Below are positions 29,607 to 43,963 of a stretch of 64,000 nucleotides of DNA, in pieces (positions within the stretch are counted from its first letter, which is position 1; every line of letters starts with the position of its first letter). The position numbers were made by a program, and so were the translations under genes. Origin of the DNA: Alphaproteobacteria bacterium (GTDB lineage: Bacteria; Pseudomonadota; Alphaproteobacteria; Sphingomonadales; Sphingomonadaceae); the NCBI GenBank assembly GCA_018970445.1, contig JAGWWF010000009.1, forward strand, positions 2,141 through 66,140, given 5' to 3'. The notes under the pieces are model-generated. The model made no database searches. It worked only from the letters and a program-made list of their open reading frames with translations, and was not told where the DNA came from.

Positions 29607-30266
29607 ATGAGCAACTCGCCAGCACGGATCAGGATCATCCTGGCCGAAGATGATCCGGCCCTGCGCAGCCATCTGGGCAGCGCCATCGCGGCCGAGGCCG
29701 ACCTGATCCTGATCGGCAGCGCCGCCAATCTGGCCGAAGGGGCAGCGCTGGTGGCGCGCGGCGGTTATGATGTGCTGTTGTGCGATCTGGGCCTGCCCGA
29801 TGGCAGCGGGATCGATCTGATCCGCCAATCGGCGGCGCGCTGGCCGGATGCCGATGTGCTGGTGGTGACGATGTTCGCCGATCAGGACAAGGTGCTGGCC
29901 AGCATCATGGCCGGCGCACGCGGCTATGTGCTGAAGGGCGATGCCATCGCCGACGCGATGGCCGCCATCCGCACCGTGCGCGCCGGCGGTTCGCCGATCA
30001 GCCCCACCATCGCCCGCCAGCTGCTGCGCCGCATCCAGCCGGCGCCAGCATCATTGGCACCCCAGCCATCGCCGCTGTCGGATCGCGAACTGGAATTGCT
30101 GCGCCTGCTGGCGCGCGGCTTTTCCTATGCCGAATCTGCCGGCCTGCTGGGGCTTTCGGCCCACACGGTCGCCAGCCATGTCAAGAATATCTATCGCAAG
30201 CTGGAAGTGAACAGCCGGGCCGAAGCCCTGTATGAAGCCAATGCGCTGGGCCTCATCCAGCCTTAG
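29607..30266 (+). CDS. Response regulator, NarL/FixJ (LuxR C-terminal HTH) family
   Basis: Start at MSNSPARIRIILAEDDPALR. The receiver domain has LLCDLGLPDGSG, and the LuxR HTH is LSDRELELLRLLARGFSYAESAGLLGLSAHTVASHVKNIYRKL. Confidence 0.9.
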   Translation: MSNSPARIRIILAEDDPALRSHLGSAIAAEADLILIGSAANLAEGAALVARGGYDVLLCDLGLPDGSGIDLIRQSAARWPDADVLVVTMFADQDKVLASIMAGARGYVLKGDAIADAMAAIRTVRAGGSPISPTIARQLLRRIQPAPASLAPQPSPLSDRELELLRLLARGFSYAESAGLLGLSAHTVASHVKNIYRKLEVNSRAEALYEANALGLIQP

Positions 30267-32028
30267 GCTGATCATCGCGCTGCTGGCGCTGCTGCTGGCG
30301 CCGGCGGCCATGGCCAGGCTCACGCCGCTCACCACTGCGCGTGTTGCTGTGGATGGCGGCGTGCCTGGCCTGCGCCCGGCGCCGTGGCTGGCCCCCGTCG
30401 CCGCCCGCCGGCTCAGCGCCGAATTCACCCTGGTCTGGGATGGCCGCCCGGTCGCCCTGCTGCTCACCGACATGCGCGAACGCGTGACCGTTTCCCTGAA
30501 CGGCGTGCCGCTGTTCAGCAACACCACCGGCCCCGCCGATACGGTGCTGGGCTGGAACCACCCCTATCATGTCGTGCTGCCCGCGGCGCTGCTGCGCCCC
30601 GGCCCCAACCGGATCCGTGTGGATGTCGCCGCCGATCCGCCCTGGCGGCTGGGCCTGGGGCAAGTGCAGGCCGGCAGCCCGGCCGAAGTGGAGGCCGGCT
30701 TTGCCCGCCAGCTGTTCTGGCGCATCGATGGCCCGCGCACCGCCAATGGCAGCCTGCTGCTGCTGGCGCTGCTGGTGCTGATGCTGTGGCGGGCGCGGCG
30801 GCGGCAGCCGGAATTGCTGCTGCTGGTGGTGGTGGGCCTGGGCTGGTGGCTGCGCAGCCTGCATTTCCACGTCACCCGCCCGCCCATCGATCCGGCGCTG
30901 TTCGCCACGATCAGCCGCGAAAGCGTGTTCATCATCGTGCCGCTCACCTTTTGCTATTGCCTGGAATTCGCCCGCATTCCCCAGGCCCGGCGCTGGCAGC
31001 TGGCGCTGCTGGCCAGCGGGCTGGTCGGGCTGGTGCTGCGCCATCTGCTGTTGCGGGCCGGCCTGCCCGATGTGCCCTCGGCGCTGCTGCTGATCATCAT
31101 GGGGCTGGGCACGGCCGGCGTGCTGGTGCGCGCGGCGTGGCAGCGGCGCGGGCCGGATCAGGCGCTGATCATCGGCGTGGTGGCGCTCAACACCGGCTTT
31201 GCCGTGCACGATCTGGGCCGGGTCTATCAGCTTGGCTGGTGGGATGGGGCGGGCTTCTTCTTCCAGCCCTTTGCCGGCATCAGCCTGTTTGCCGCCTTCT
31301 TCCTCAGCCTGGGCCGCCAGTTCGTCGCGGCGCTCGATGCCAGCGAAACCAGCAATGTGCGGCTGGAACAGGCGGTGGCCAGCGCCCGCGCCGATCTGGC
31401 CGCCAGCGAGGAACGCCGCCGCCGCCTTGAGGTGGAACGCGCCATCGAAGGCGAACGCGAACGGCTGATGCGCGAAATGCACGATGGCATCGGTGCCAAT
31501 CTGGTGGCCGCCGTGGCCGTGGCCGAACAACAGGGCCAGCCGGCCAGCACCATCGCCCCGCTGCGCCGGGCGCTGGCCGATCTGAAACTCACGGTGGACA
31601 GCCTGGATCCGGTCGATGGCGACATGGTGGCGCTGCTCGCCTCGCTGCGCCACCGCATCGCCGGCGATCTGGCCGCCGCCGGCATCGCGGTGGATTGGCA
31701 GGTCGCGCCCTGCCCGCCGCTGCCCTGGCTGGATGCCGCCAACGCGCTGCACGTGCTGCGCCTGTTTCAGGAAGCGATCAGCAACGCCATCCAGCACAGC
31801 GGCGCGCGCCGAATCGCCATCGGCTGCGCCCCGCGCCAGCAGGGTGATCGGCTGGGCATCGCGGCCTGGGTGGCCGATGATGGCTGCGGCCTGGCACCCG
31901 CCGCCGCCGCGGGCCGGGGCCTGGCCCACATGCAGCAGCGCGCCGCCAGCATGCACGGCCGACTGGACATCGCCGCCAGCCCCGGCGCCGGCACCGCCAT
32001 CACCCTGTGGCTGCCGCTGCGGCGCTGA
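30232..32028 (+). CDS. Sensor histidine kinase (HisKA_3 family) with a periplasmic domain plus a multi-TM sensor module
   Basis: Signal/TM segment, then a periplasmic region of about 150 aa and about 6-7 TM helices. H-box ERERLMREMHDGIGANL and a HATPase_c region (GLAHMQQRAASMHGRLDI). It overlaps the response regulator gene by 35 nt. Confidence 0.85.
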   Translation: MKPMRWASSSLRLIIALLALLLAPAAMARLTPLTTARVAVDGGVPGLRPAPWLAPVAARRLSAEFTLVWDGRPVALLLTDMRERVTVSLNGVPLFSNTTGPADTVLGWNHPYHVVLPAALLRPGPNRIRVDVAADPPWRLGLGQVQAGSPAEVEAGFARQLFWRIDGPRTANGSLLLLALLVLMLWRARRRQPELLLLVVVGLGWWLRSLHFHVTRPPIDPALFATISRESVFIIVPLTFCYCLEFARIPQARRWQLALLASGLVGLVLRHLLLRAGLPDVPSALLLIIMGLGTAGVLVRAAWQRRGPDQALIIGVVALNTGFAVHDLGRVYQLGWWDGAGFFFQPFAGISLFAAFFLSLGRQFVAALDASETSNVRLEQAVASARADLAASEERRRRLEVERAIEGERERLMREMHDGIGANLVAAVAVAEQQGQPASTIAPLRRALADLKLTVDSLDPVDGDMVALLASLRHRIAGDLAAAGIAVDWQVAPCPPLPWLDAANALHVLRLFQEAISNAIQHSGARRIAIGCAPRQQGDRLGIAAWVADDGCGLAPAAAAGRGLAHMQQRAASMHGRLDIAASPGAGTAITLWLPLRR

Positions 32029-32088
32029 ACCCCCGATTGCGACGGCATGGCCATTGCGCCGCCCTGCCCCACCGCCTATGCCCCTGCC

Positions 32089-33894
32089 ATGACGCCGCAA
32101 GACCGTATCCGCAATTTTTCGATCATCGCCCACATCGATCACGGGAAATCCACCCTGGCCGATCGCCTGATCCAGACCACCGGCGGGCTGCAACTGCGCG
32201 AGATGTCCGAACAGGTGCTCGACAATATGGACATCGAGAAGGAGCGCGGCATCACCATCAAGGCGCAGACGGTGCGCCTGGATTATCGCGCCGCCGATGG
32301 CCTGGATTATGTCCTCAACCTGATGGACACGCCGGGCCATGTCGATTTCGCCTATGAAGTCTCGCGCTCCCTCGCCGCCTGCGAAGGCGCGCTGCTGGTG
32401 GTGGATGCGGCCCAGGGCGTCGAGGCGCAGACTTTGGCCAACGTCTATCAATCGATCGAGCATGATCATGAAATCGTGCCGGTGATCAACAAGATCGATC
32501 TGCCCTCGGCCGAGCCGGAAAAGGTGAAGCAGGAGATCGAGGACATCATCGGCCTCGATGCCTCGGGCGCCGTGCTGGCCAGCGCCAAATCCGGCATCGG
32601 CATCACCGATATACTGGAAGCCATCGTCACGCGCATCCCGCCGCCCAAGGGCGATCCGCAACTGCCGCTCAAAGCCATGCTGGTGGACAGCTGGTATGAT
32701 CCCTATCTGGGCGTCGTCATCCTGATCCGCGTGATCGACGGCACCATCCGCAAGGGCCAGCAGATCAAGTTCATGGCCGCCGACAGCATGCACCTGGTTG
32801 ACCGGGTGGGCGCCTTCCGGCCCAAGATCGAACAATTCGCCGAACTCGGCCCCGGCGAAATCGGCTTCATCACCGCCCAGATCAAGGAAGTGGCCCAGGC
32901 CCGTGTGGGCGACACCATCACCGATGCCAGGCGCCCCGCCAACGAACCGCTGCCCGGCTTCAGGCAAGTGCAGCCGGTGGTGTTCTGCGGCCTGTTCCCC
33001 ACCGATGCCGCCGATTTCGAGAAACTGCGCGACAGCATCGCCAAGCTGCGGCTGAACGATGCCAGCTTCAGCTTTGAAATGGAAACCAGCGCCGCGCTGG
33101 GCTTCGGATTCCGCTGCGGCTTCCTGGGGCTGCTCCACCTGGAAATCATCCAGGAACGGCTGAGCCGCGAATATGATCTGGATCTGATCACTACCGCGCC
33201 ATCGGTGGTCTACAACATCATGCTGCGCGATGGTTCGGCCATCGAACTGCACAACCCGGCCGACATGCCCGATCCGTCGTCCATCCTGCAGATCGACGAA
33301 CCCTGGATCGAAGCCACCATCTATGTGCCCGATGAATATCTCGGCTCCATCCTGAAACTCTGTCAGGACAGGCGGGGCATCCAGAAGAATCTCACCTATG
33401 TCGGCGGCCGCGCCCAGGTCACCTATGATCTGCCGCTGAACGAAGTGGTGTTCGATTTCTATGACCGGCTGAAATCCATCTCCCGCGGCTATGCCAGTTT
33501 CGATTATCACCAGATCGGCCACCGCGAAGGCGATCTGGTGAAGATGTCGATCATGGTCAACAGCGAGCCGGTGGACGCCCTGTCGATGATCGTCCACCGC
33601 AGCGCGGCGGAAGCCCGCGGCCGCCACATGTGCGAACGCATGAAGGACCTGATCCCCCGCCACCTGTTCAAGATCCCGATCCAAGCGGCGATTGGCGGAA
33701 AAGTCATCGCCCGCGAAACCATCGCCGCCCTGCGCAAGGACGTCACCGCCAAATGCTACGGCGGCGACGCCAGCCGCAAACGCAAGCTGCTGGACAAGCA
33801 GAAGGAAGGCAAGAAGCGGATGCGGCAATATGGGAATGTGGACATCCCGCAGGAAGCGTTCATCGCCGCGCTGCGGATGGGGGATGATGGATGA
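32089..33894 (+). CDS. lepA: Translation elongation factor 4
   Basis: [27 protein letters not shown] and NKIDL GTPase motifs, with the typical LepA C-terminus. ATG at 32089 chosen (the track ORF starts at 32047). Confidence 0.95.
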
Positions 33895-34071
33895 GGTCTT
33901 GAACCGCGACGGCGTTTTGCGTCCGACGGATCGCTCTTCGCAAATTATGCGACCGCCTTCACAGTCGTTTCAAGTCTGCGCTTTGCTTTGGCGTGGTGCT
34001 CACATAAACACAGATCAGCCAGGATAGCCGGAACGTCCATTTTGCGCCGGCACCATTGCCTGAGGAGCTGG

Positions 34072-34986
34072 ATGCAGTTCAACCGATCAGAACTGAATGA
34101 TTCCGCTGTCTCGCTCGCGCGTTCCCCCGCGGTGGATGACAGCTGCATCGGCCGGAACTACTTGATCGAGGAAAATGTCACCGATCAACGGCGAAGCGTC
34201 GTGGAGGGGTATGAACCGCTCGCGATCGATGTCCGCGAGGTGGTGAACAGTTATTTCCGCGACAGCGTGCAGGGGGTGCAACGCGGTCACCTCTCATCGA
34301 CGTTCGATGAAACCATCAACCATCAGGCGTTGCTGCCGGTCTCTGTTGAACCAACGCAAAAGATCATCCGCCTTGAACGGATCGATCGCCATCTGGAGCC
34401 AATCGGAGGGCTTGATTTCATGAGCCTGACCAAAGCGCTCCAAGACAATGATCGGCACAGGCTGGCCGCACTCGCCGATCAATTTCTGAATTATGGCGGT
34501 GAACGGCCTGCGTTTTCTGCGTTCAAGAGTGAAGTTTCCGATGATCTGAATAGCGTGGATTTGCTGCCGCGAATAATCGATCGGCTTGGATTATATCATC
34601 ATTATCCCTTTGTTTCAGGCAAACCATACCGCTTTGCACTCATGGAATATACGGCGGCGGAGGTGATCGATCAGGCCAAGAAGAAGAACATGAATCGTTG
34701 TTTTGCCCTGGCCACCGTGCTGGAATGTCAGAACAACCCGGCCTTCTTTCCGGTGCCGCGTGCGACGAGCCACGGCTTCACCGTTGACCTGCGCGAACGC
34801 AATCCAGCGCAGCCAAGCGTACGAGAGATGCTCCACATCCGCTTCGATTATTCCTGGCGGCATATCAAGCGGATCGCCGAATGGACGGGAGCCGACACGC
34901 CTGATATCGTCGCCGCGCGCGATCGCCACCTTGCCACATTGCGAACAGCAACAGGGTGCGCAGATTTTGGCGACGTCGGGGTCTGA
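34072..34986 (+). CDS. Hypothetical protein A of the low-GC cassette (304 aa, soluble, no recognised family)
   Basis: The first ATG of the frame is preceded by GAGGAG (34062-34067) with a 4-nt spacer. The frame is open to the TGA at 34984-34986. Codon usage differs from the flanking genes. No signal peptide or TM segment. Confidence 0.6.
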   Translation: MQFNRSELNDSAVSLARSPAVDDSCIGRNYLIEENVTDQRRSVVEGYEPLAIDVREVVNSYFRDSVQGVQRGHLSSTFDETINHQALLPVSVEPTQKIIRLERIDRHLEPIGGLDFMSLTKALQDNDRHRLAALADQFLNYGGERPAFSAFKSEVSDDLNSVDLLPRIIDRLGLYHHYPFVSGKPYRFALMEYTAAEVIDQAKKKNMNRCFALATVLECQNNPAFFPVPRATSHGFTVDLRERNPAQPSVREMLHIRFDYSWRHIKRIAEWTGADTPDIVAARDRHLATLRTATGCADFGDVGV

Positions 34987-34988
34987 TC

Positions 34989-37088
34989 ATGGCAATGTCG
35001 CCTGCCTTGGAACAATGGAAAGCCCGCTTGCGGGCGGACGGCACGGCCGCCCTTCGCGCCATCCTGAACGGCACCGCATCACTGGGGCAGATGTCGGCCG
35101 CAGAACCGGAAGACGCCATCGATGCAATTCTTGCTTCAGAAGAGCAGGGTTCTGATCTGGTTGACCATTTTGACCAAGCCTGTTCCGATTTGCTGGAAGA
35201 ATATCGCTCAACGCTGCTGGAACAAAAGGATCGGGCTTTTCGGATTGAATTGAGCCGGTTCACAAGCTTCATCGCGATGATTCGGCGCATATTGCCGAAG
35301 CAGACGATCATCAGACTGCATCGAGAATATATCATCTGGAACGGTTTCTTCGAAAATTTCGTCGTCGATCGCGGCCTTGATCTGCGTCGCGAATATTTTC
35401 GAATTCTTGCCCTCAGCCAGGACCTGGCGGCCGAGGGTGGCTTGCAGGCGCGGCGGTTGATGCCGTTGTGGCTGTCGATCTGCGCGGAAAGCGGCGAATT
35501 TGGCCGCTATGATCCCAGCTATCTGCGGGTGGCCCTCATGGGCCTGCGACGGCTCCCGCTGGGTGATGCGTTCGATGCCAACGAGGATTTTGCCCTGCAA
35601 GGGCTTGCCCGCTGGGCGGTGACGCAACGGCCCCTCGAACCCGCCTTTGAACGCGAATGGCGCATTCTTGAAGGCGATTTTCCGAGATCATATGACTTCT
35701 GGCAGGATCGCGTTCAGGCCGCGATCGTGGCGGCTGAAACCGAATTGTCGGAACGCACCCACCAAGCGGAGACAAGCTTTCCGATCGCAGACTGGTGGCG
35801 AAAGGATGTGGACATCGATCCCAGAGACAGATCGTCGCGTGGTGGCGCCGCTAAAGAACCTCCACCGCGCGAAGAGCGCGAAGCGATCCTGAGGGATATC
35901 GGCAACGCTTTGGAAAGCCTGCGCCCCAGGATCAACACTCTGATGACCAAGCACAGGCACTATGCCGACAAGACCGGAGACGTGTTTTACCTGGTGCGGA
36001 CAGCCTGCAATATCGGCATGAACTTGCTTCGCAAGGGATTGCCATCTGAAAAGGCAAGCAGAGGCATTGATGCAGCATCGCTGGCAAAACTTGCCCTGGA
36101 TTATTTTGCAGAACATATTGCGGCATGGTCGCTGTTGCGTGATGCGCTGGCAGCATCTGGTCGCATTGCGGACGCGGAACTTGTTGGCTGGGAAGCCATC
36201 CGGCGCTTTCCGGAGGATGTGCAGTTTCGGACCCAGCTCGCAACAGTGCTGGTGACATATGCCGGCAAAACAGAGGAAGCCGCTGCACTTTTGGGTGAAA
36301 CAACGGCACTATTCCCCCTTGATCCGTTTGCGCGCACCCAACTCGCAACGTTGCTGGCAACGAGGATGGGCAAAGCCGAAAAGGCCATGGCGCTGCTGTT
36401 GGACACGAAGGCCCTGTTTCCCACGGACGCTTATGTGCGAACGCAACTTGCGACCGTGCTTGCCGATGATCTGCGCCGCACTGCAGATGCACGCGCCGTG
36501 CTTGAAGGCGCGATTGCGGATGGCCTGGACGATAACACAATCCAATCCTTGCTGCACAAGCTTGACCAAGGCCGCACGCTTCGCCGCAAAGCGTCGCCAC
36601 GGGCGGCGATCCCAGACACGAGCCACCTGAACCTGGCAACAGCCATTGCCCGTCGCCAGCTTTTTCTGTTTGAAGCTAGGATTTCATCCACGGCTGAATT
36701 GCACGCGGTGCTGAATCAACTGCCAAAAGACAGCTACACGACCTATGTCTCCCAACGGGCCGGGCTGTCTGACATGCCGTTCAAGACCAATTTTGCCCTT
36801 GCCTTTGATGCCGCGTTGCAGTTGGCCGAGCCGTCAGCATTGCGGGCGCTGGTGGCGTCGGTGCGGCCGATGGAACGGGCAATAGTCGAAAAGGCAGTTG
36901 CCTTGAGCGAAGGCAGGGTCGTGCTGTTCAGGGATGTCTTTGCGGAAGGGGCGCGCAATGAGCGCGCCCAGCGCCTGGAAGAGACGCTGGCGCAGTCGGG
37001 CGGACGTGAAGATCGCCAAACTGTGCTGCTGCGGGATTTCGTGGCATCGACGCTGGTGACCAGCCTTGCCTCCTTGCAGGCCGCCTGA
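34989..37088 (+). CDS. Hypothetical protein B of the low-GC cassette (699 aa, helical, three TPR-like repeats)
   Basis: The ATG lies 2 nt after the stop of gene A. The long frame is uninterrupted in a region where other frames are closed. Three tandem 34/35-aa repeats each contain RTQLAT. Confidence 0.65.
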   Translation: MAMSPALEQWKARLRADGTAALRAILNGTASLGQMSAAEPEDAIDAILASEEQGSDLVDHFDQACSDLLEEYRSTLLEQKDRAFRIELSRFTSFIAMIRRILPKQTIIRLHREYIIWNGFFENFVVDRGLDLRREYFRILALSQDLAAEGGLQARRLMPLWLSICAESGEFGRYDPSYLRVALMGLRRLPLGDAFDANEDFALQGLARWAVTQRPLEPAFEREWRILEGDFPRSYDFWQDRVQAAIVAAETELSERTHQAETSFPIADWWRKDVDIDPRDRSSRGGAAKEPPPREEREAILRDIGNALESLRPRINTLMTKHRHYADKTGDVFYLVRTACNIGMNLLRKGLPSEKASRGIDAASLAKLALDYFAEHIAAWSLLRDALAASGRIADAELVGWEAIRRFPEDVQFRTQLATVLVTYAGKTEEAAALLGETTALFPLDPFARTQLATLLATRMGKAEKAMALLLDTKALFPTDAYVRTQLATVLADDLRRTADARAVLEGAIADGLDDNTIQSLLHKLDQGRTLRRKASPRAAIPDTSHLNLATAIARRQLFLFEARISSTAELHAVLNQLPKDSYTTYVSQRAGLSDMPFKTNFALAFDAALQLAEPSALRALVASVRPMERAIVEKAVALSEGRVVLFRDVFAEGARNERAQRLEETLAQSGGREDRQTVLLRDFVASTLVTSLASLQAA
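36225..36530 (+). repeat. Three tandem 102-105-nt units encoding TPR-like repeats inside gene B
   Basis: The units are FRTQLATVLVTYAGKTEEAAALLGETTALFPLDP, FARTQLATLLATRMGKAEKAMALLLDTKALFPTDA and YVRTQLATVLADDLRRTADARAVLEGAIADGLDD. Confidence 0.75.
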
Positions 37089-37107
37089 AACAGCCGCGCC
37101 CTCCCCC

Positions 37108-37518
37108 CTACAACAACCCCAGCGCCAGCAAATCCCGCGCCAGGGCGGCGGGCAGCGCCGTGGCGGCATCGGCACCTTCCGCCAGATCGGCGGGTGCATC
37201 GGCGGCGGCGAGGTAGCGCCAGCCCTGGTGGGCGCGGTGGGGTTTGGGCTGCACCGGCACCGGGCCGGGGGCCAGGGTGATGGCGCATTTGCGGCCCCAG
37301 GGCGTGTCGGCCATGTCAATTGCCAGGATGGTCTGGCGCGCCACCAGCTTGTGGCCGATGATCCAGAAGATCGATCCGCCGATCAGTTCATCGGCCCGCC
37401 GCGGCATCAGCCGGGTGTGGGCGCCGGCACGGCCTTCGCCCCACCAATGTGCCTGCCGGGCCGCCAACGTGTCGATATCCGGGCAGCCGGCGGCCACTTT
37501 CGTCAAGTGCAGGGTCAT
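37108..37518 (-). CDS. DUF1489 family protein
   Basis: 136 aa, MTLHLTKVAAGCPDIDTLAARQ...GGSIFWIIGHKLVARQTILAI, matching my memory of DUF1489. It overlaps the mgtE stop by 4 nt. Confidence 0.75.
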   Translation of the reverse strand: MTLHLTKVAAGCPDIDTLAARQAHWWGEGRAGAHTRLMPRRADELIGGSIFWIIGHKLVARQTILAIDMADTPWGRKCAITLAPGPVPVQPKPHRAHQGWRYLAAADAPADLAEGADAATALPAALARDLLALGLL

Positions 37519-38924
37519 TGCAGATTGGCAACGCCCACCATTGCGGCCAGGCCCAGAAAGCCCAGGAAGCCCATGGTATCGGTGGTCATGGTGACAAAGA
37601 TGGAGCTGGCCACCGCCGGATCGGTGCGCATCCGGGTGAGTGCCAGCGGCACCAGCACCCCGGCCAGCCCGGCGATCATGATGTTGAACAGCGCGGCCGC
37701 GGCAATCACCGCGCCCAGATTGGCGCTGTTGAACAAGATGCCCACGCCCAGCCCCAGCAGGGCCGCGATGGTGAGGCCGTTCAGCATGGCCACGCGCACT
37801 TCGCGCCAGATGGTGCGGCGCGTGTTGCTTTCGGTCAGCTGCTTGGTGGCGATGGCGCGCACCGCCACCGCCATCGTCTGCGTGCCGGCATTGCCGCCGA
37901 TGCTGGCCACGATGGGGGTGAGCGCAGCCAGCGTGACCAGTTTTTCGATCGTGGGTTCAAACAGCGCGATCACGCTGGAGGAGATCATCGCCGTGCCCAG
38001 ATTGGCCGCCAGCCAGCGCACCCGCGCCTTGTAGCTTTCCACCACCGGTTCGTTGATGTCGCCATCGCCGGCGCCCGACAGTTTCAGCGCATCCTCACCG
38101 GCTTCGGCCTGGATGATGTGCACCACATCGTCCACGGTGATCACGCCCACCAGCTTGCCCCAGGCATCCACCACGGCGGCCGAAATCAGCGCATATTTCT
38201 GGAATTGCAGCGCCACTTCCTCCTGGTCCATCGTCACCGGAATCAGCGTCTGCTCGCGCTTCATCACATCGGCCACCATCAGATCGGGCGGCGCGGTGAG
38301 CAGCCAGCTCAGCCGCATGGTGCCCACCGGGCGGCCGGCGGCATCGATCACGAAGATTTCCCAGAAATCGGTGGCCGGATCGATGCTGGCGCGGATGCGA
38401 TCGATCACGGCGCCCACGCTGATATCCTCGGCCACCGCCACCAGCTCGCGCTGCATCAGGCGGCCGGCGGATTCTTCCGGGTAATTCAGCGCGGCTTCGA
38501 TATCGGCGCGGTCTTCGGGGGCCAGGGCGCGCAGCACGGCGCGCTGGTCATCGGCCTCCAGATCCTCGATGACGGCCACGGCATCATCGGTGTCCAGCTG
38601 GGTGACAACCTCGGCCACCTCGCCGGGGGACAGCGCCTCCAGCACATCCTCGCGGACATAATCATCCAGCTCGGCAATCACCTCGGCGTTCAGCAGATCG
38701 CCCAGCGCATCGGCCAGCGGCGCGCGCGCATCCACGGCAAAGGCGGCAAACAGATCGGCCACATCGGCCGGGTGCAGCGGGCTGACCAGCGCGCGCACCG
38801 CATCATCGTCGCCGCTGTCCAGCACGGCGGCAACCTCGGCCACGAAGGCCCGGCTCAGCCGGCCTGCCTCCAGCGCGTCCGGGGCGTCATCCCCCCGGGG
38901 ATCAAGGCGCAGATCCTCACTCAT
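37515..38924 (-). CDS. mgtE: Magnesium transporter
   Basis: 469 aa with an acidic N-domain, a tandem CBS region and a C-terminal 5-TM domain carrying GNAGTQTMAV and DTMGFLGFLGLA motifs. Confidence 0.9.
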   Translation of the reverse strand: MSEDLRLDPRGDDAPDALEAGRLSRAFVAEVAAVLDSGDDDAVRALVSPLHPADVADLFAAFAVDARAPLADALGDLLNAEVIAELDDYVREDVLEALSPGEVAEVVTQLDTDDAVAVIEDLEADDQRAVLRALAPEDRADIEAALNYPEESAGRLMQRELVAVAEDISVGAVIDRIRASIDPATDFWEIFVIDAAGRPVGTMRLSWLLTAPPDLMVADVMKREQTLIPVTMDQEEVALQFQKYALISAAVVDAWGKLVGVITVDDVVHIIQAEAGEDALKLSGAGDGDINEPVVESYKARVRWLAANLGTAMISSSVIALFEPTIEKLVTLAALTPIVASIGGNAGTQTMAVAVRAIATKQLTESNTRRTIWREVRVAMLNGLTIAALLGLGVGILFNSANLGAVIAAAALFNIMIAGLAGVLVPLALTRMRTDPAVASSIFVTMTTDTMGFLGFLGLAAMVGVANLQ

Positions 38925-41826: not shown

Positions 41827-42172
41827 TCAATCCCCTGCCGCAGTGCGTGCGCTGATCGCGACGATCCCCACCTCTTGCCCGGCCATCACGGTGCGCGCCA
41901 GCGGGGCGACACGGCCAACGCCTTCCTGGAGCCGGATCGGCTGCATCACCGCCAACGATGGCAAAGGACTGGCAGCGGCCATCGGCGGATTCGAACGTGA
42001 CGCGATGGCGCAAGGCGATGCGGCCATGGCCGGCGCTCAGTTCGAACAGCGCCGCCCCGATCCGCGACATACCGGCGTGGGTGGCGGGATTTGGATCTGC
42101 AGAGGTCGGCCGGTCGGGCAGATCGGCAGCAACGGCTTCGGCGTCGGCTTCCTTGGCAACGGAAACACTCAT
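41827..42172 (-). pseudogene. GreA/GreB-family (Rnk-like) transcription factor remnant, frameshifted and apparently missing its coiled-coil segment
   Basis: One frame reads MSVSVAKEADAEAVAADLPDRPTSADPNP...RHRVTFESADGRCQSFAIVGGDAADP. The expected C-terminus GRVAPLARTVMAGQEVGIVAI lies in a different frame (track ORF 41827..42027). The span length is not a multiple of 3. Confidence 0.5.
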
Positions 42173-42922
42173 GGGCTGTTTCATAGCAATCTGCCGTCGC
42201 CAGTGGAATAGAGGAAATTTTCTCTTTCAGAGGCTTGAGCGTGAGCGCGCTCCCCCCGGATGCGCACTTGCGCGTCGGACTGCACACTTGCCTGGCTGGA
42301 TCAATAGCGGGCTTGAGCCTCTTCATCAGAGAACAGGACAAGACAATCAGACAGAAATGGTCGGTCAGTTCGGCAGTTGTGGCGTTATGCGTCGGTTCGT
42401 GCACGCAGCGATCGTCAGCCAGGCAGGTGGGCCAGAACAAGAGCCAGTTTCGGAATCGCGGCCCTCTTGGCCAGGGCTGGCTGCAAGCGAAGTGCGAGAG
42501 CAAGGCCAGCGTTGTCGATATCAACCCAGAAAAGCCAGCCGCAACCGGCCGAAGTGATCACCGCAATGGCCGAACCGTTCGCTTCCAAGTTGACACGGCG
42601 CGCATTCACGCGCTGCGGCTTGACACCAGCAACATTTTTGGCCCCGCTGGGCCGATCTGGGCTTGGGCCCGGAATTTCTGGGTGTGAAACGCCGAGCGAC
42701 AACATCTGCATTTGGCGGCTGGGCATGACCCCTGACAATCTTGGCAACGCCGGTGAAACCATGTCGGCCACGCTCGCCAAGAACCCCGGCGTAACGATGC
42801 AAGGAATGACGATCGGTAACGACACTGCAGCTGCACTGGAGCTCAGGAGCCTGAAGGCCATGCTGAAGGCTGTGGCAGAAGATGTCTTGCGCGATGATCT
42901 TGACTGCCAGCTGGAGTGATGT

Positions 42923-43963
42923 TCAGGGCAGCAACAGGCTGCCGTCGCCATAGGAATAGAAACGATATTCCTTTTCAATGGCATGCGCGTACGCCCGGCG
43001 CATGACGTCCAGCCCCATCAGCGCGCTGACCAGCATGAACAAGGTGGATCGCGGCAGGTGGAAATTGGTGATCAGGCCGTCGATGGCCTTCAGGCGATGG
43101 CCGGGGGTGATAAAGATGCTGGTATCGCCGGTGAAGGCGCGGATCTCGCCGGTTTCGGCGACACAGGATTCGAGCAGCCGCAACGATGTGGTGCCCACCG
43201 AGATGATGCGGCCGCCGGCGGCGCGGGCGGCGTTCAGCCGGGCGGCGGTGGCGGCATCGATGCTGCCCCATTCGGCGTGCATCCTGTGGTCTTCCACCCT
43301 GGCGGCCTTCACCGGCAGGAAGGTGCCCGCCCCCACGTGCAGCGTCACGGTTTCGCGGGTGATGCCGGCATCGGCCAGCGCGGCCCACAGGCGCGGGGTG
43401 AAATGCAGGCCGGCGGTGGGGGCCGCAACCGCGCCGTCCTTCGCGGCATGCAGCGTCTGGTAATCGGCGGCATCGCGGGCATCGGTGCCGCGCCGGCGGG
43501 CGATATAGGGCGGCAGCGGCATCTGCCCCACGCGTTCCAGCGCCTGTTCCAGCGTTTCGCCGGGCCGCGCCACAAAGCGCCACAGCACCCCGCCTTCATC
43601 GCCCTTGTCCAGCACCTCGCCGGCCAGGCCGGGGCCAAAATCCACCCGGTCGCCGGGCTTCAGCCGGCGGGCATTCTTCACGAAGCTCCACCACTGGTCG
43701 GCCGCTTCGCGCTTGTGCAGGGTCACGCCGATATGGGCCTGGCCCTTTTGCGCATGCAGCTGGGCCGGGATCACCCGCGTGTCGTTCACCACCAGCACAT
43801 CGCCGCGCCGCAAGCGCGCCGGCAGATCCATGAAGGTGAAATCGCCCAGGTGGCCGATGTCGCGGCCGGTCACGCACAGCAGCCGGGCGGCATCGCGTGG
43901 ATTGGCCGGGCGCAGGGCGATGCGGTCTTCGGGCAGGGGGAAATCGAAATCATCGACCAGCAT
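42923..43963 (-). CDS. queA: S-adenosylmethionine:tRNA ribosyltransferase-isomerase
   Basis: [24 protein letters not shown] at the N-terminus, then GLHFT and [15 protein letters not shown]. An alternative start lies at 43993. Confidence 0.9.

Follow-up and report, generated by a model that had tools for sequence, protein, structure and literature searches.

What is the pair of genes that lies between lepA and the DUF1489-mgtE block of an alphaproteobacterial contig, and what does it do? The pair fills region 33895-37090 of the window, by which we mean the whole 64,000-nucleotide stretch analyzed (contig JAGWWF010000009.1 of assembly GCA_018970445.1, Alphaproteobacteria bacterium, positions 2,141 to 66,140). 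An earlier note on this DNA had described a compositionally foreign, self-contained cassette of two same-strand open reading frames (ORFs), here called gene A and gene B, and had suggested an effector-plus-sensor pair or a toxin-immunity module. We find that the cassette belongs to a widespread two-gene module that moves horizontally, and that the window copy is real, cleanly bounded and horizontally acquired. As for its function, we give a probability of roughly 0.4 to a conflict- or defense-type module in which B is the sensor or regulator and A the effector. At a minimum, A and B are a large, cleanly delimited and strictly co-inherited pair that is lacking in Pfam, NCBIfam, PHROGs and PADLOC.

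The first step of the answer is that A and B belong together. A profile search with A covered 1.84 billion representative proteins and returned 711 relatives as representatives at 50% clustering (487 at an expect value, E, of 1e-10 or below); full-length relatives among the matches listed are stand-alone proteins of about 290–350 aa. A later homology search with a diverse alignment of A added no new proteins. A degenerate DNA motif for the conserved A peptide PTVLD-x6-FFPxP, designed for distant members only, matched 107 metagenome stretches, and 104 of these encode an A-family ORF. The loci number 140 in total, of which 122 are informative in having at least 600 nt downstream of A. A followed by B on the same strand was scored in 118 of the informative loci; L024 and L025 are scoring artifacts, as B is called there, so that about 120 of the 122 are linked and the co-occurrence elsewhere that the earlier note had proposed to look for is borne out. 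The two exceptions are L068 and L083, in the second of which A is fragmented. In the first round, 30 genome or assembly loci extended far enough to be judged, and in every one B follows A immediately and on the same strand. Linkage persists down to about 25% identity in A, and the two genes, as called, overlap by up to 4 nt or lie up to about 10 nt apart.

These loci represent 108 distinct pairs at 95% nucleotide identity, found in host DNA with a G + C fraction (GC) of 0.39–0.72. Named hosts are mostly Alphaproteobacteria, and single metagenome-assembled genomes (MAGs) labeled Magnetococcales, Thermodesulfobacteriota/Deltaproteobacteria and Sphingobacteriia also carry the pair. Source annotations of family members always read ‘hypothetical protein’ or ‘tetratricopeptide repeat protein’. 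There is no third conserved gene: in an all-against-all comparison of the neighbors, the largest family reaches 8 loci at about 30% identity, and the 148 nearest-neighbor proteins are spread over 183 Pfam families, each with 4 members at most.

Some genomes and contigs hold more than one copy, and some copies are broken. One MAG (Alphaproteobacteria bacterium nN3bin14) has two separate A-B loci on different contigs (L015 and L017), and one metagenomic contig carries two tandem pairs (L071:4772-11249), the second of which is shorter and partly degenerate: its A' corresponds to profile positions 131-239 only, and its B' is 47–70% identical to parts of the first B. A is called as two or three separate ORF fragments in L049, L052, L072, L075, L082, L083, L085, L094, L097, L107, L109, L127 and L130, and B likewise in L042, L070, L075, L076, L119 and L139; on the contig of P0042, B is called as 236 + 417 aa. 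The split ORFs in metagenomic loci may be true pseudogenes or assembly errors.

The second step is that the pair moves. Of the non-redundant loci, 44 have 6 kb or more of flank, and in 30 of these the GC of the pair differs from that of its flank by more than 0.03. It is lower than the flank in 15 of them, in hosts of about 0.63–0.72 GC, and higher in 15, in hosts of about 0.39–0.65 GC, the deviations often amounting to several standard deviations of flank windows of the same size. This is the pattern expected of a cassette moving among hosts of different composition, and it indicates repeated horizontal transfer. Identity between two Rhodoplanes genomes is 62% for A and 61% for B, compared with 70–93% for six of seven neighbors aligned over most of their length; the pair here evolves faster than most of its neighbors.

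The window copy is itself foreign in composition, as the earlier note had proposed. The region has a GC of 0.576 versus a window mean of 0.664 (standard deviation 0.024 over 3.2-kb intervals), and the 3.2-kb intervals of lowest GC in the 64 kb overlap it. GC at third codon positions (GC3) is 0.633 in A and 0.637 in B; the values for the neighbors are 0.815 in lepA, 0.873 in a 7TM histidine kinase gene (Pfam) located further left, 0.854 in the DUF1489 gene and 0.838 in mgtE. Among the 48 ORFs called in the window, A and B rank lowest (z about −4; the other ORFs lie at ~0.81). Because GC3 itself is low in both genes, the low GC does not come from amino-acid content. Four 60-nt lines counted by hand in the earlier note (43.3, 46.7, 50.0 and 61.7% GC) proved exact. 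Elsewhere in the window, the next low-GC 1-kb bin is 42001-43000 (0.60), and the ORF at 42235-42687 has the third lowest GC3 (0.70).

The edges of the cassette are given by DNA similarity to the closest relatives L022/L023, which spans 34061 to 37089 with ~73% identity in the main aligned block. This span holds the Shine-Dalgarno site, A and B only, and the other loci have nothing that resembles the 166 nt between the lepA stop and position 34061. Extent of similarity and GC3 thus both bear out a foreign and self-contained unit. The Shine-Dalgarno sequence GAGGAG lies at 34062-34067, 4 nt 5′ of the A start codon, and the ATG of B, preceded by a GGGG run, comes 2 nt past the TGA of A. The coordinates of the two ORFs, the ribosome-binding site and the 2-nt spacing are all as first claimed, and Pfam confirms the assignment of the flanks to lepA and DUF1489-mgtE.

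The third step concerns the proteins. A is a soluble protein of 304 aa (isoelectric point 5.9), and its AlphaFold2 model is of high confidence (predicted local distance difference test score, pLDDT, 93.1; predicted template modeling score, pTM, 0.89). Four helices make up the N-terminal part of this model, its core is of mixed alpha/beta type, and aa 205-251 form a long stretch that is ordered but rich in loops. Foldseek finds no match for the model in the PDB (best E 2.4, template modeling score, TM, < 0.2) or in BFVD (best E 0.2). At the sequence level, A has nothing at E ≤ 1 in Pfam, NCBIfam, PHROGs or PADLOC and nothing significant among PDB sequences, whether searched as a single sequence or with profiles. 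The A family is thus large and absent from the databases searched. An alignment of 40 diverse members shows R40, P229, G235, L240, E252, R283 and H286 to be invariant and ~20 further positions nearly so, a pattern that would fit an enzyme or a specific binding site. With its high-confidence fold and its invariant R40, E252, R283 and H286, A looks like an enzyme.

Several more specific readings of A were considered. Two Rx4-6H motifs (R171-H176 and R257-H264) recall HEPN proteins. In the mixed alpha/beta model, the conserved R171-x4-H176 sits in a loop that follows a helix, outside any recognizable HEPN bundle; Foldseek gives no HEPN match, and the HEPN profile has no match in the 40 A members. 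Conserved D, E, H and R residues and low-ranked Foldseek rows (EcPltA, taurocyamine kinase, glutamine synthetase) prompted comparison with PD-(D/E)xK nucleases, ADP-ribosyltransferases and guanido-kinase/glutamine-synthetase-like enzymes; these were rejected at Foldseek probabilities of at most 0.03 and TM < 0.3. A motif check of A and B for Walker A, HExxH, HKD motifs and transmembrane-like segments found none, in agreement with the earlier reading that there is no P-loop, HExxH or transmembrane segment in either protein.

B is a 78-kDa protein whose structural model is all-helical (pLDDT 88.7, pTM 0.90). The earlier note could place neither protein in any family; this stands for A and, for B, holds only in part. 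Residues 385-485 of B match Pfam TPR_14 (33 bits, cut-off 23.5) and TPR_19 (30.3 bits, cut-off 25), the model has paired helices over aa 377-526, and Foldseek with the B model returns generic solenoids of tetratricopeptide repeats (TPRs) only. By Pfam criteria B is therefore a TPR repeat protein, a label that covers only ~150 of its 699 residues. TPR label aside, neither A nor B matched any characterized housekeeping family. The N-terminal domain of B has the conserved residues Q144, W161, G185, L186, D131, W238 and G330, mostly of structural type, and a profile of it found no relative in the PDB or Pfam.

The repeat region of B varies. Insertion/deletion blocks of 35 aa in the alignment show that the number of TPRs differs among homologs, and the closest relatives of B, at 664-666 aa, have one TPR unit fewer. 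The 105-nt periodic DNA repeat within B looks like a trace of tandem duplication of TPR units. The C-terminal domain is also variable, with a mean pairwise identity of 0.35 over aa 527-699 versus 0.58 over aa 121-280. No NTPase family (NB-ARC, NACHT, AAA) is matched by A or B in Pfam, and with no P-loop in B a STAND/Avs reading was rejected. A HEPN/AbiU2 reading of B was also dropped: aa 56-113 score 14.7 bits against HEPN_AbiU2 (cut-off 26.8), a match seen in 1 of 36 B N-domains and attributed to chance, and B has no Rx4-6H motif.

The fourth step is where the pair is found. L033 and L022, the nearest to the window cassette among its relatives (75–76% identity in A), are both prophage-linked. 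In L033, an IMG/VR contig, a lambda-family portal gene on the minus strand (PF05136, E 2e-66) is separated by 228 nt from A; B comes next, and 20 nt further on lies the gpA large terminase gene, also on the minus strand, after which comes a D5-type primase. A and B are on the plus strand, opposite to the packaging genes, and the cassette has a GC of 0.55–0.63 versus about 0.70 in the rest of the contig. The L033 portal gene has an in-frame TAG after codon 51 (L033:686-842, minus strand), which may reflect a decaying prophage or a sequencing error. L022, from Pseudochelatococcus lubricantis, has the same junction of portal fragment, spacer and A with high nucleotide similarity; within 6 kb it also has an insertion sequence element, a serine recombinase and a PIN/DUF433 toxin-antitoxin pair. 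Only L033 and L022 thus show prophage cargo in the sense of a moron; no phage genes adjoin the window copy.

Defense genes and mobile elements occur near other copies. L032 has Bro-N upstream and an Eco29kI restriction-modification system, Vsr and a phage lysozyme downstream, and L128 adjoins a Mrr-type nuclease. A scan of the two nearest genes on each side in about 70 loci (148 proteins) gave matches to RT_UG29 (DRT) in two members and to AbiLi/AbiLii, MzaA, Vsr, Mrr-type and PDC-M06B proteins, and of the 12 contexts of 20 kb that were annotated in full, about 3–4 are of mobile-element or defense type. Further copies stand as islets beside core genes: lepA (window), rpoD-dnaG (L141), secDF-yajC (L142), der (L093), rsmE (L061) and uvrB (L118), with secA within 2 kb downstream in L026. 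None of these seven copies has an integrase or repeats. Their siting may result from homologous recombination through conserved flanks or from a targeting preference.

We favor a conflict function because A and B form a coupled pair, A is enzyme-like, B is a variable TPR solenoid, and the pair is mobile, occasionally has prophage or restriction-modification genes in its neighborhood and evolves fast. We infer an A-B complex, effector and sensor roles, a trigger and a defense phenotype, which could fit together as follows. A single message with translational coupling would yield both A and B, which would then associate in a complex. B, a TPR solenoid with a fast-evolving C-terminal domain and variable repeat number, would act as a sensor or regulator restraining A, and A would be a soluble effector enzyme with a fold unseen in solved structures and an invariant Arg/Glu/His set. 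Once B binds a trigger, for example part of a phage or of another mobile element entering the cell, A might be released or activated, and either growth would stop or the invader would be kept out.

If true, such a conflict system would be a new immune module with an effector fold lacking structural precedent and a TPR sensor lacking the STAND NTPase, and it would come from environmental Alphaproteobacteria, which existing defense catalogs cover poorly. That A founds a new enzyme fold and is the effector of an NTPase-less, TPR-gated immune or abortive-infection system is a tentative proposal that we consider rather unlikely; it would mean that such a system is widespread in environmental Proteobacteria and beyond, spreads as a two-gene cassette and is absent from defense catalogs. 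As the 3-kb cassette has exact boundaries, it is directly clonable and testable.

A number of results weigh against a conflict or defense function. Only about 6–8 of the 148 nearest neighbors are clear defense proteins, a weak signal of a defense island, and many of the PADLOC matches among neighbors are generic (Der GTPase scored as LeoA; DnaG). About 8 of the 12 annotated contexts are plain housekeeping. The pair occurs on one of 2.9 million viral contigs in IMG/VR, where the motif for distant members has no match, versus 107 in metagenomes. Three family members used as queries had no match on 72,556 plasmids, and the window A had none in 50,697 phage genomes. The window proteins have no homology to any of the 5027 PADLOC models (no family in PADLOC-DB 2.0.0 at E ≤ 1), and 76 diverse members (40 A proteins and 36 B N-domains) gave single weak matches only, the best being a generic ‘TPR protein’ model at E 2e-4. 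The pair is not always a recent arrival: the two Rhodoplanes genomes have it at a syntenic position, with a GC like that of the host. The defense search proposed in that note was thus negative in PADLOC and produced a few defense neighbors at most. Its view of a foreign, self-contained cassette is supported, as are strict linkage and variable context; its effector-plus-sensor or toxin-immunity proposal stays a candidate reading, with the PADLOC result and the faint defense-neighbor signal against it.

Several of these results suit an accessory cellular function with no role in conflict. A would be an enzyme, for example one modifying proteins or small molecules, and B a TPR adaptor or scaffold recruiting its substrates; TPR proteins commonly serve as enzyme scaffolds. 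We think this possible, with the odds against it. Equally doubtful is its companion idea that the pair is kept for niche-specific physiology and spread by ordinary horizontal transfer. Housekeeping contexts free of mobile or defense neighbors are in the majority, the Rhodoplanes copies look settled, and the pair is nearly absent from viral contigs and missing from the plasmid and sequenced-phage searches. Yet an accessory function leaves several observations poorly explained: about 135 loci have no conserved metabolic, regulatory or transport neighbor, the pair evolves faster than most of its neighbors and frequently mismatches its host in GC, its closest relatives are prophage cargo, and the split ORFs in several loci suggest that the function is dispensable.

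A selfish addiction module of toxin-antitoxin type, in which the toxin would most plausibly be A and loss of the pair would be harmful, with no sensing of phage, is improbable. The strict linkage and 2-nt coupling, the isolated islets between housekeeping genes, the occurrence beside other toxin-antitoxin pairs and mobile elements, and the splitting of both A and B in several metagenomic loci all fit it. At 304 and 699 aa, however, the proteins are far above the size of typical type II partners, and they have no DNA-binding or antitoxin-like domain and no Pfam toxin or antitoxin match. Addiction modules are common on plasmids, yet searches with three family members found none on the 72,556 plasmids. 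A phage life-cycle function (an accessory to packaging or morphogenesis, or lysogeny control), with chromosomal copies as prophage remnants, is very improbable: the L033 cassette does lie between portal and large terminase and L022 keeps the portal junction, but the pair is opposite in strand to the packaging genes, as for inserted cargo, the viral contigs yield a single copy and no match to the family motif, the window A matches no sequenced phage genome and no PHROG significantly, and most loci have no phage genes nearby.

The features of the window cassette and its flanks are collected in the table. On the plus strand, neither a sigma-70-like promoter nor an intrinsic terminator is predicted between lepA and A (33700-34071); because of this, read-through from lepA is possible, and the cassette may be transcribed in this way. 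The DUF1489 stop at 37108 is convergent with that of B, with 19 nt between them, and transcription of B may run into DUF1489 as antisense. As the earlier note had seen, there is no tRNA (none within 8 kb of the cassette) and no flanking direct repeat; inverted repeats around the cassette were not found either, and no Rfam element was detected as an insertion or regulatory signature. The claim that integrases and transposases are absent holds between lepA and DUF1489, the only stretch searched for such genes. A 1191-aa ORF at 30253-33828 on the minus strand, antisense to the histidine kinase gene and lepA, we take to be spurious, of a kind common in high-GC DNA, and not a gene.

Table. Features of the two-gene cassette and its flanks, in window coordinates.
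Feature	Positions	Strand	Remarks
Gene A	34072-34986	+	304 aa, ATG start
Gene B	34989-37088	+	699 aa, ATG start, stop codon 37086-88
B N-terminal all-helical domain, aa 1-372	34989-36104	+	kept wherever A occurs
B TPR region, aa 373-526	36105-36566	+	4 helix-pair repeats and a further helix
Three DNA copies of a 25-nt core	36228-36462	+	105 nt (35 codons) spacing; 84% and 72% identical to reference copy
B C-terminal helical domain, aa 527-699, and stop codon	36567-37088	+	least conserved part of B
Spacer, lepA stop to gene A start	33895-34071	+	177 nt, GC 0.565, holds Shine-Dalgarno
Spacer, B stop to convergent DUF1489 stop	37089-37107		19 nt; right-hand edge of foreign DNA
lepA, left flank	32047-33894	+	Pfam; host composition, outside module
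DUF1489, right flank	37108-37518	-	Pfam; host composition, outside module
mgtE, right flank	37515-38924	-	Pfam; host composition, outside module

Set beside known systems, A-B belongs to none of the PADLOC systems, STAND proteins, type II toxin-antitoxin systems or the HEPN family as defined by its profile, and it shares features with several. Like type II toxin-antitoxin and abortive-infection pairs, it is a compact, translationally coupled, self-contained islet between unrelated genes. Unlike type II pairs, its proteins are 3–7 times larger than typical partners, have no HTH, RHH or AbrB domain and no family match, and were not found on the plasmids searched. With STAND/NLR-like systems (Avs, bNACHT) it has in common a helical TPR region as the likely recognition surface, a mobile, patchy and fast-evolving distribution with variable repeats and, as proposed here, an effector activity gated by a repeat protein. 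It differs from them in that B has no NTPase module (no Walker A, no NB-ARC, NACHT or AAA), the putative effector A is encoded apart from the repeat protein instead of being fused at its N terminus, and PADLOC gives no Avs or NLR match.

Prophage accessory cargo genes and antiviral hotspots have been described in P2 and P4 elements (Rousset et al. 2022, PMC9122126). The L033 and L022 cassette resembles such cargo as a reverse-oriented, lower-GC insert in a prophage structural block, whereas the portal-terminase site of a lambda-like phage is not among the P2/P4 hotspots described there. A further parallel is BcTir/BcTpr of Bacillus cereus, a two-gene defense operon of an effector and a TPR protein in which the effector is a TIR protein (bioRxiv 10.1101/2023.05.26.542521). 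By comparison, A lacks TIR, SIR2 and any other known effector domain, its predicted fold has no PDB match, and B has a 370-aa N-terminal domain with no relative in the databases searched. The operon logic is the same in both systems: an effector gene, for which A is the candidate here, next to a gene for a TPR protein.

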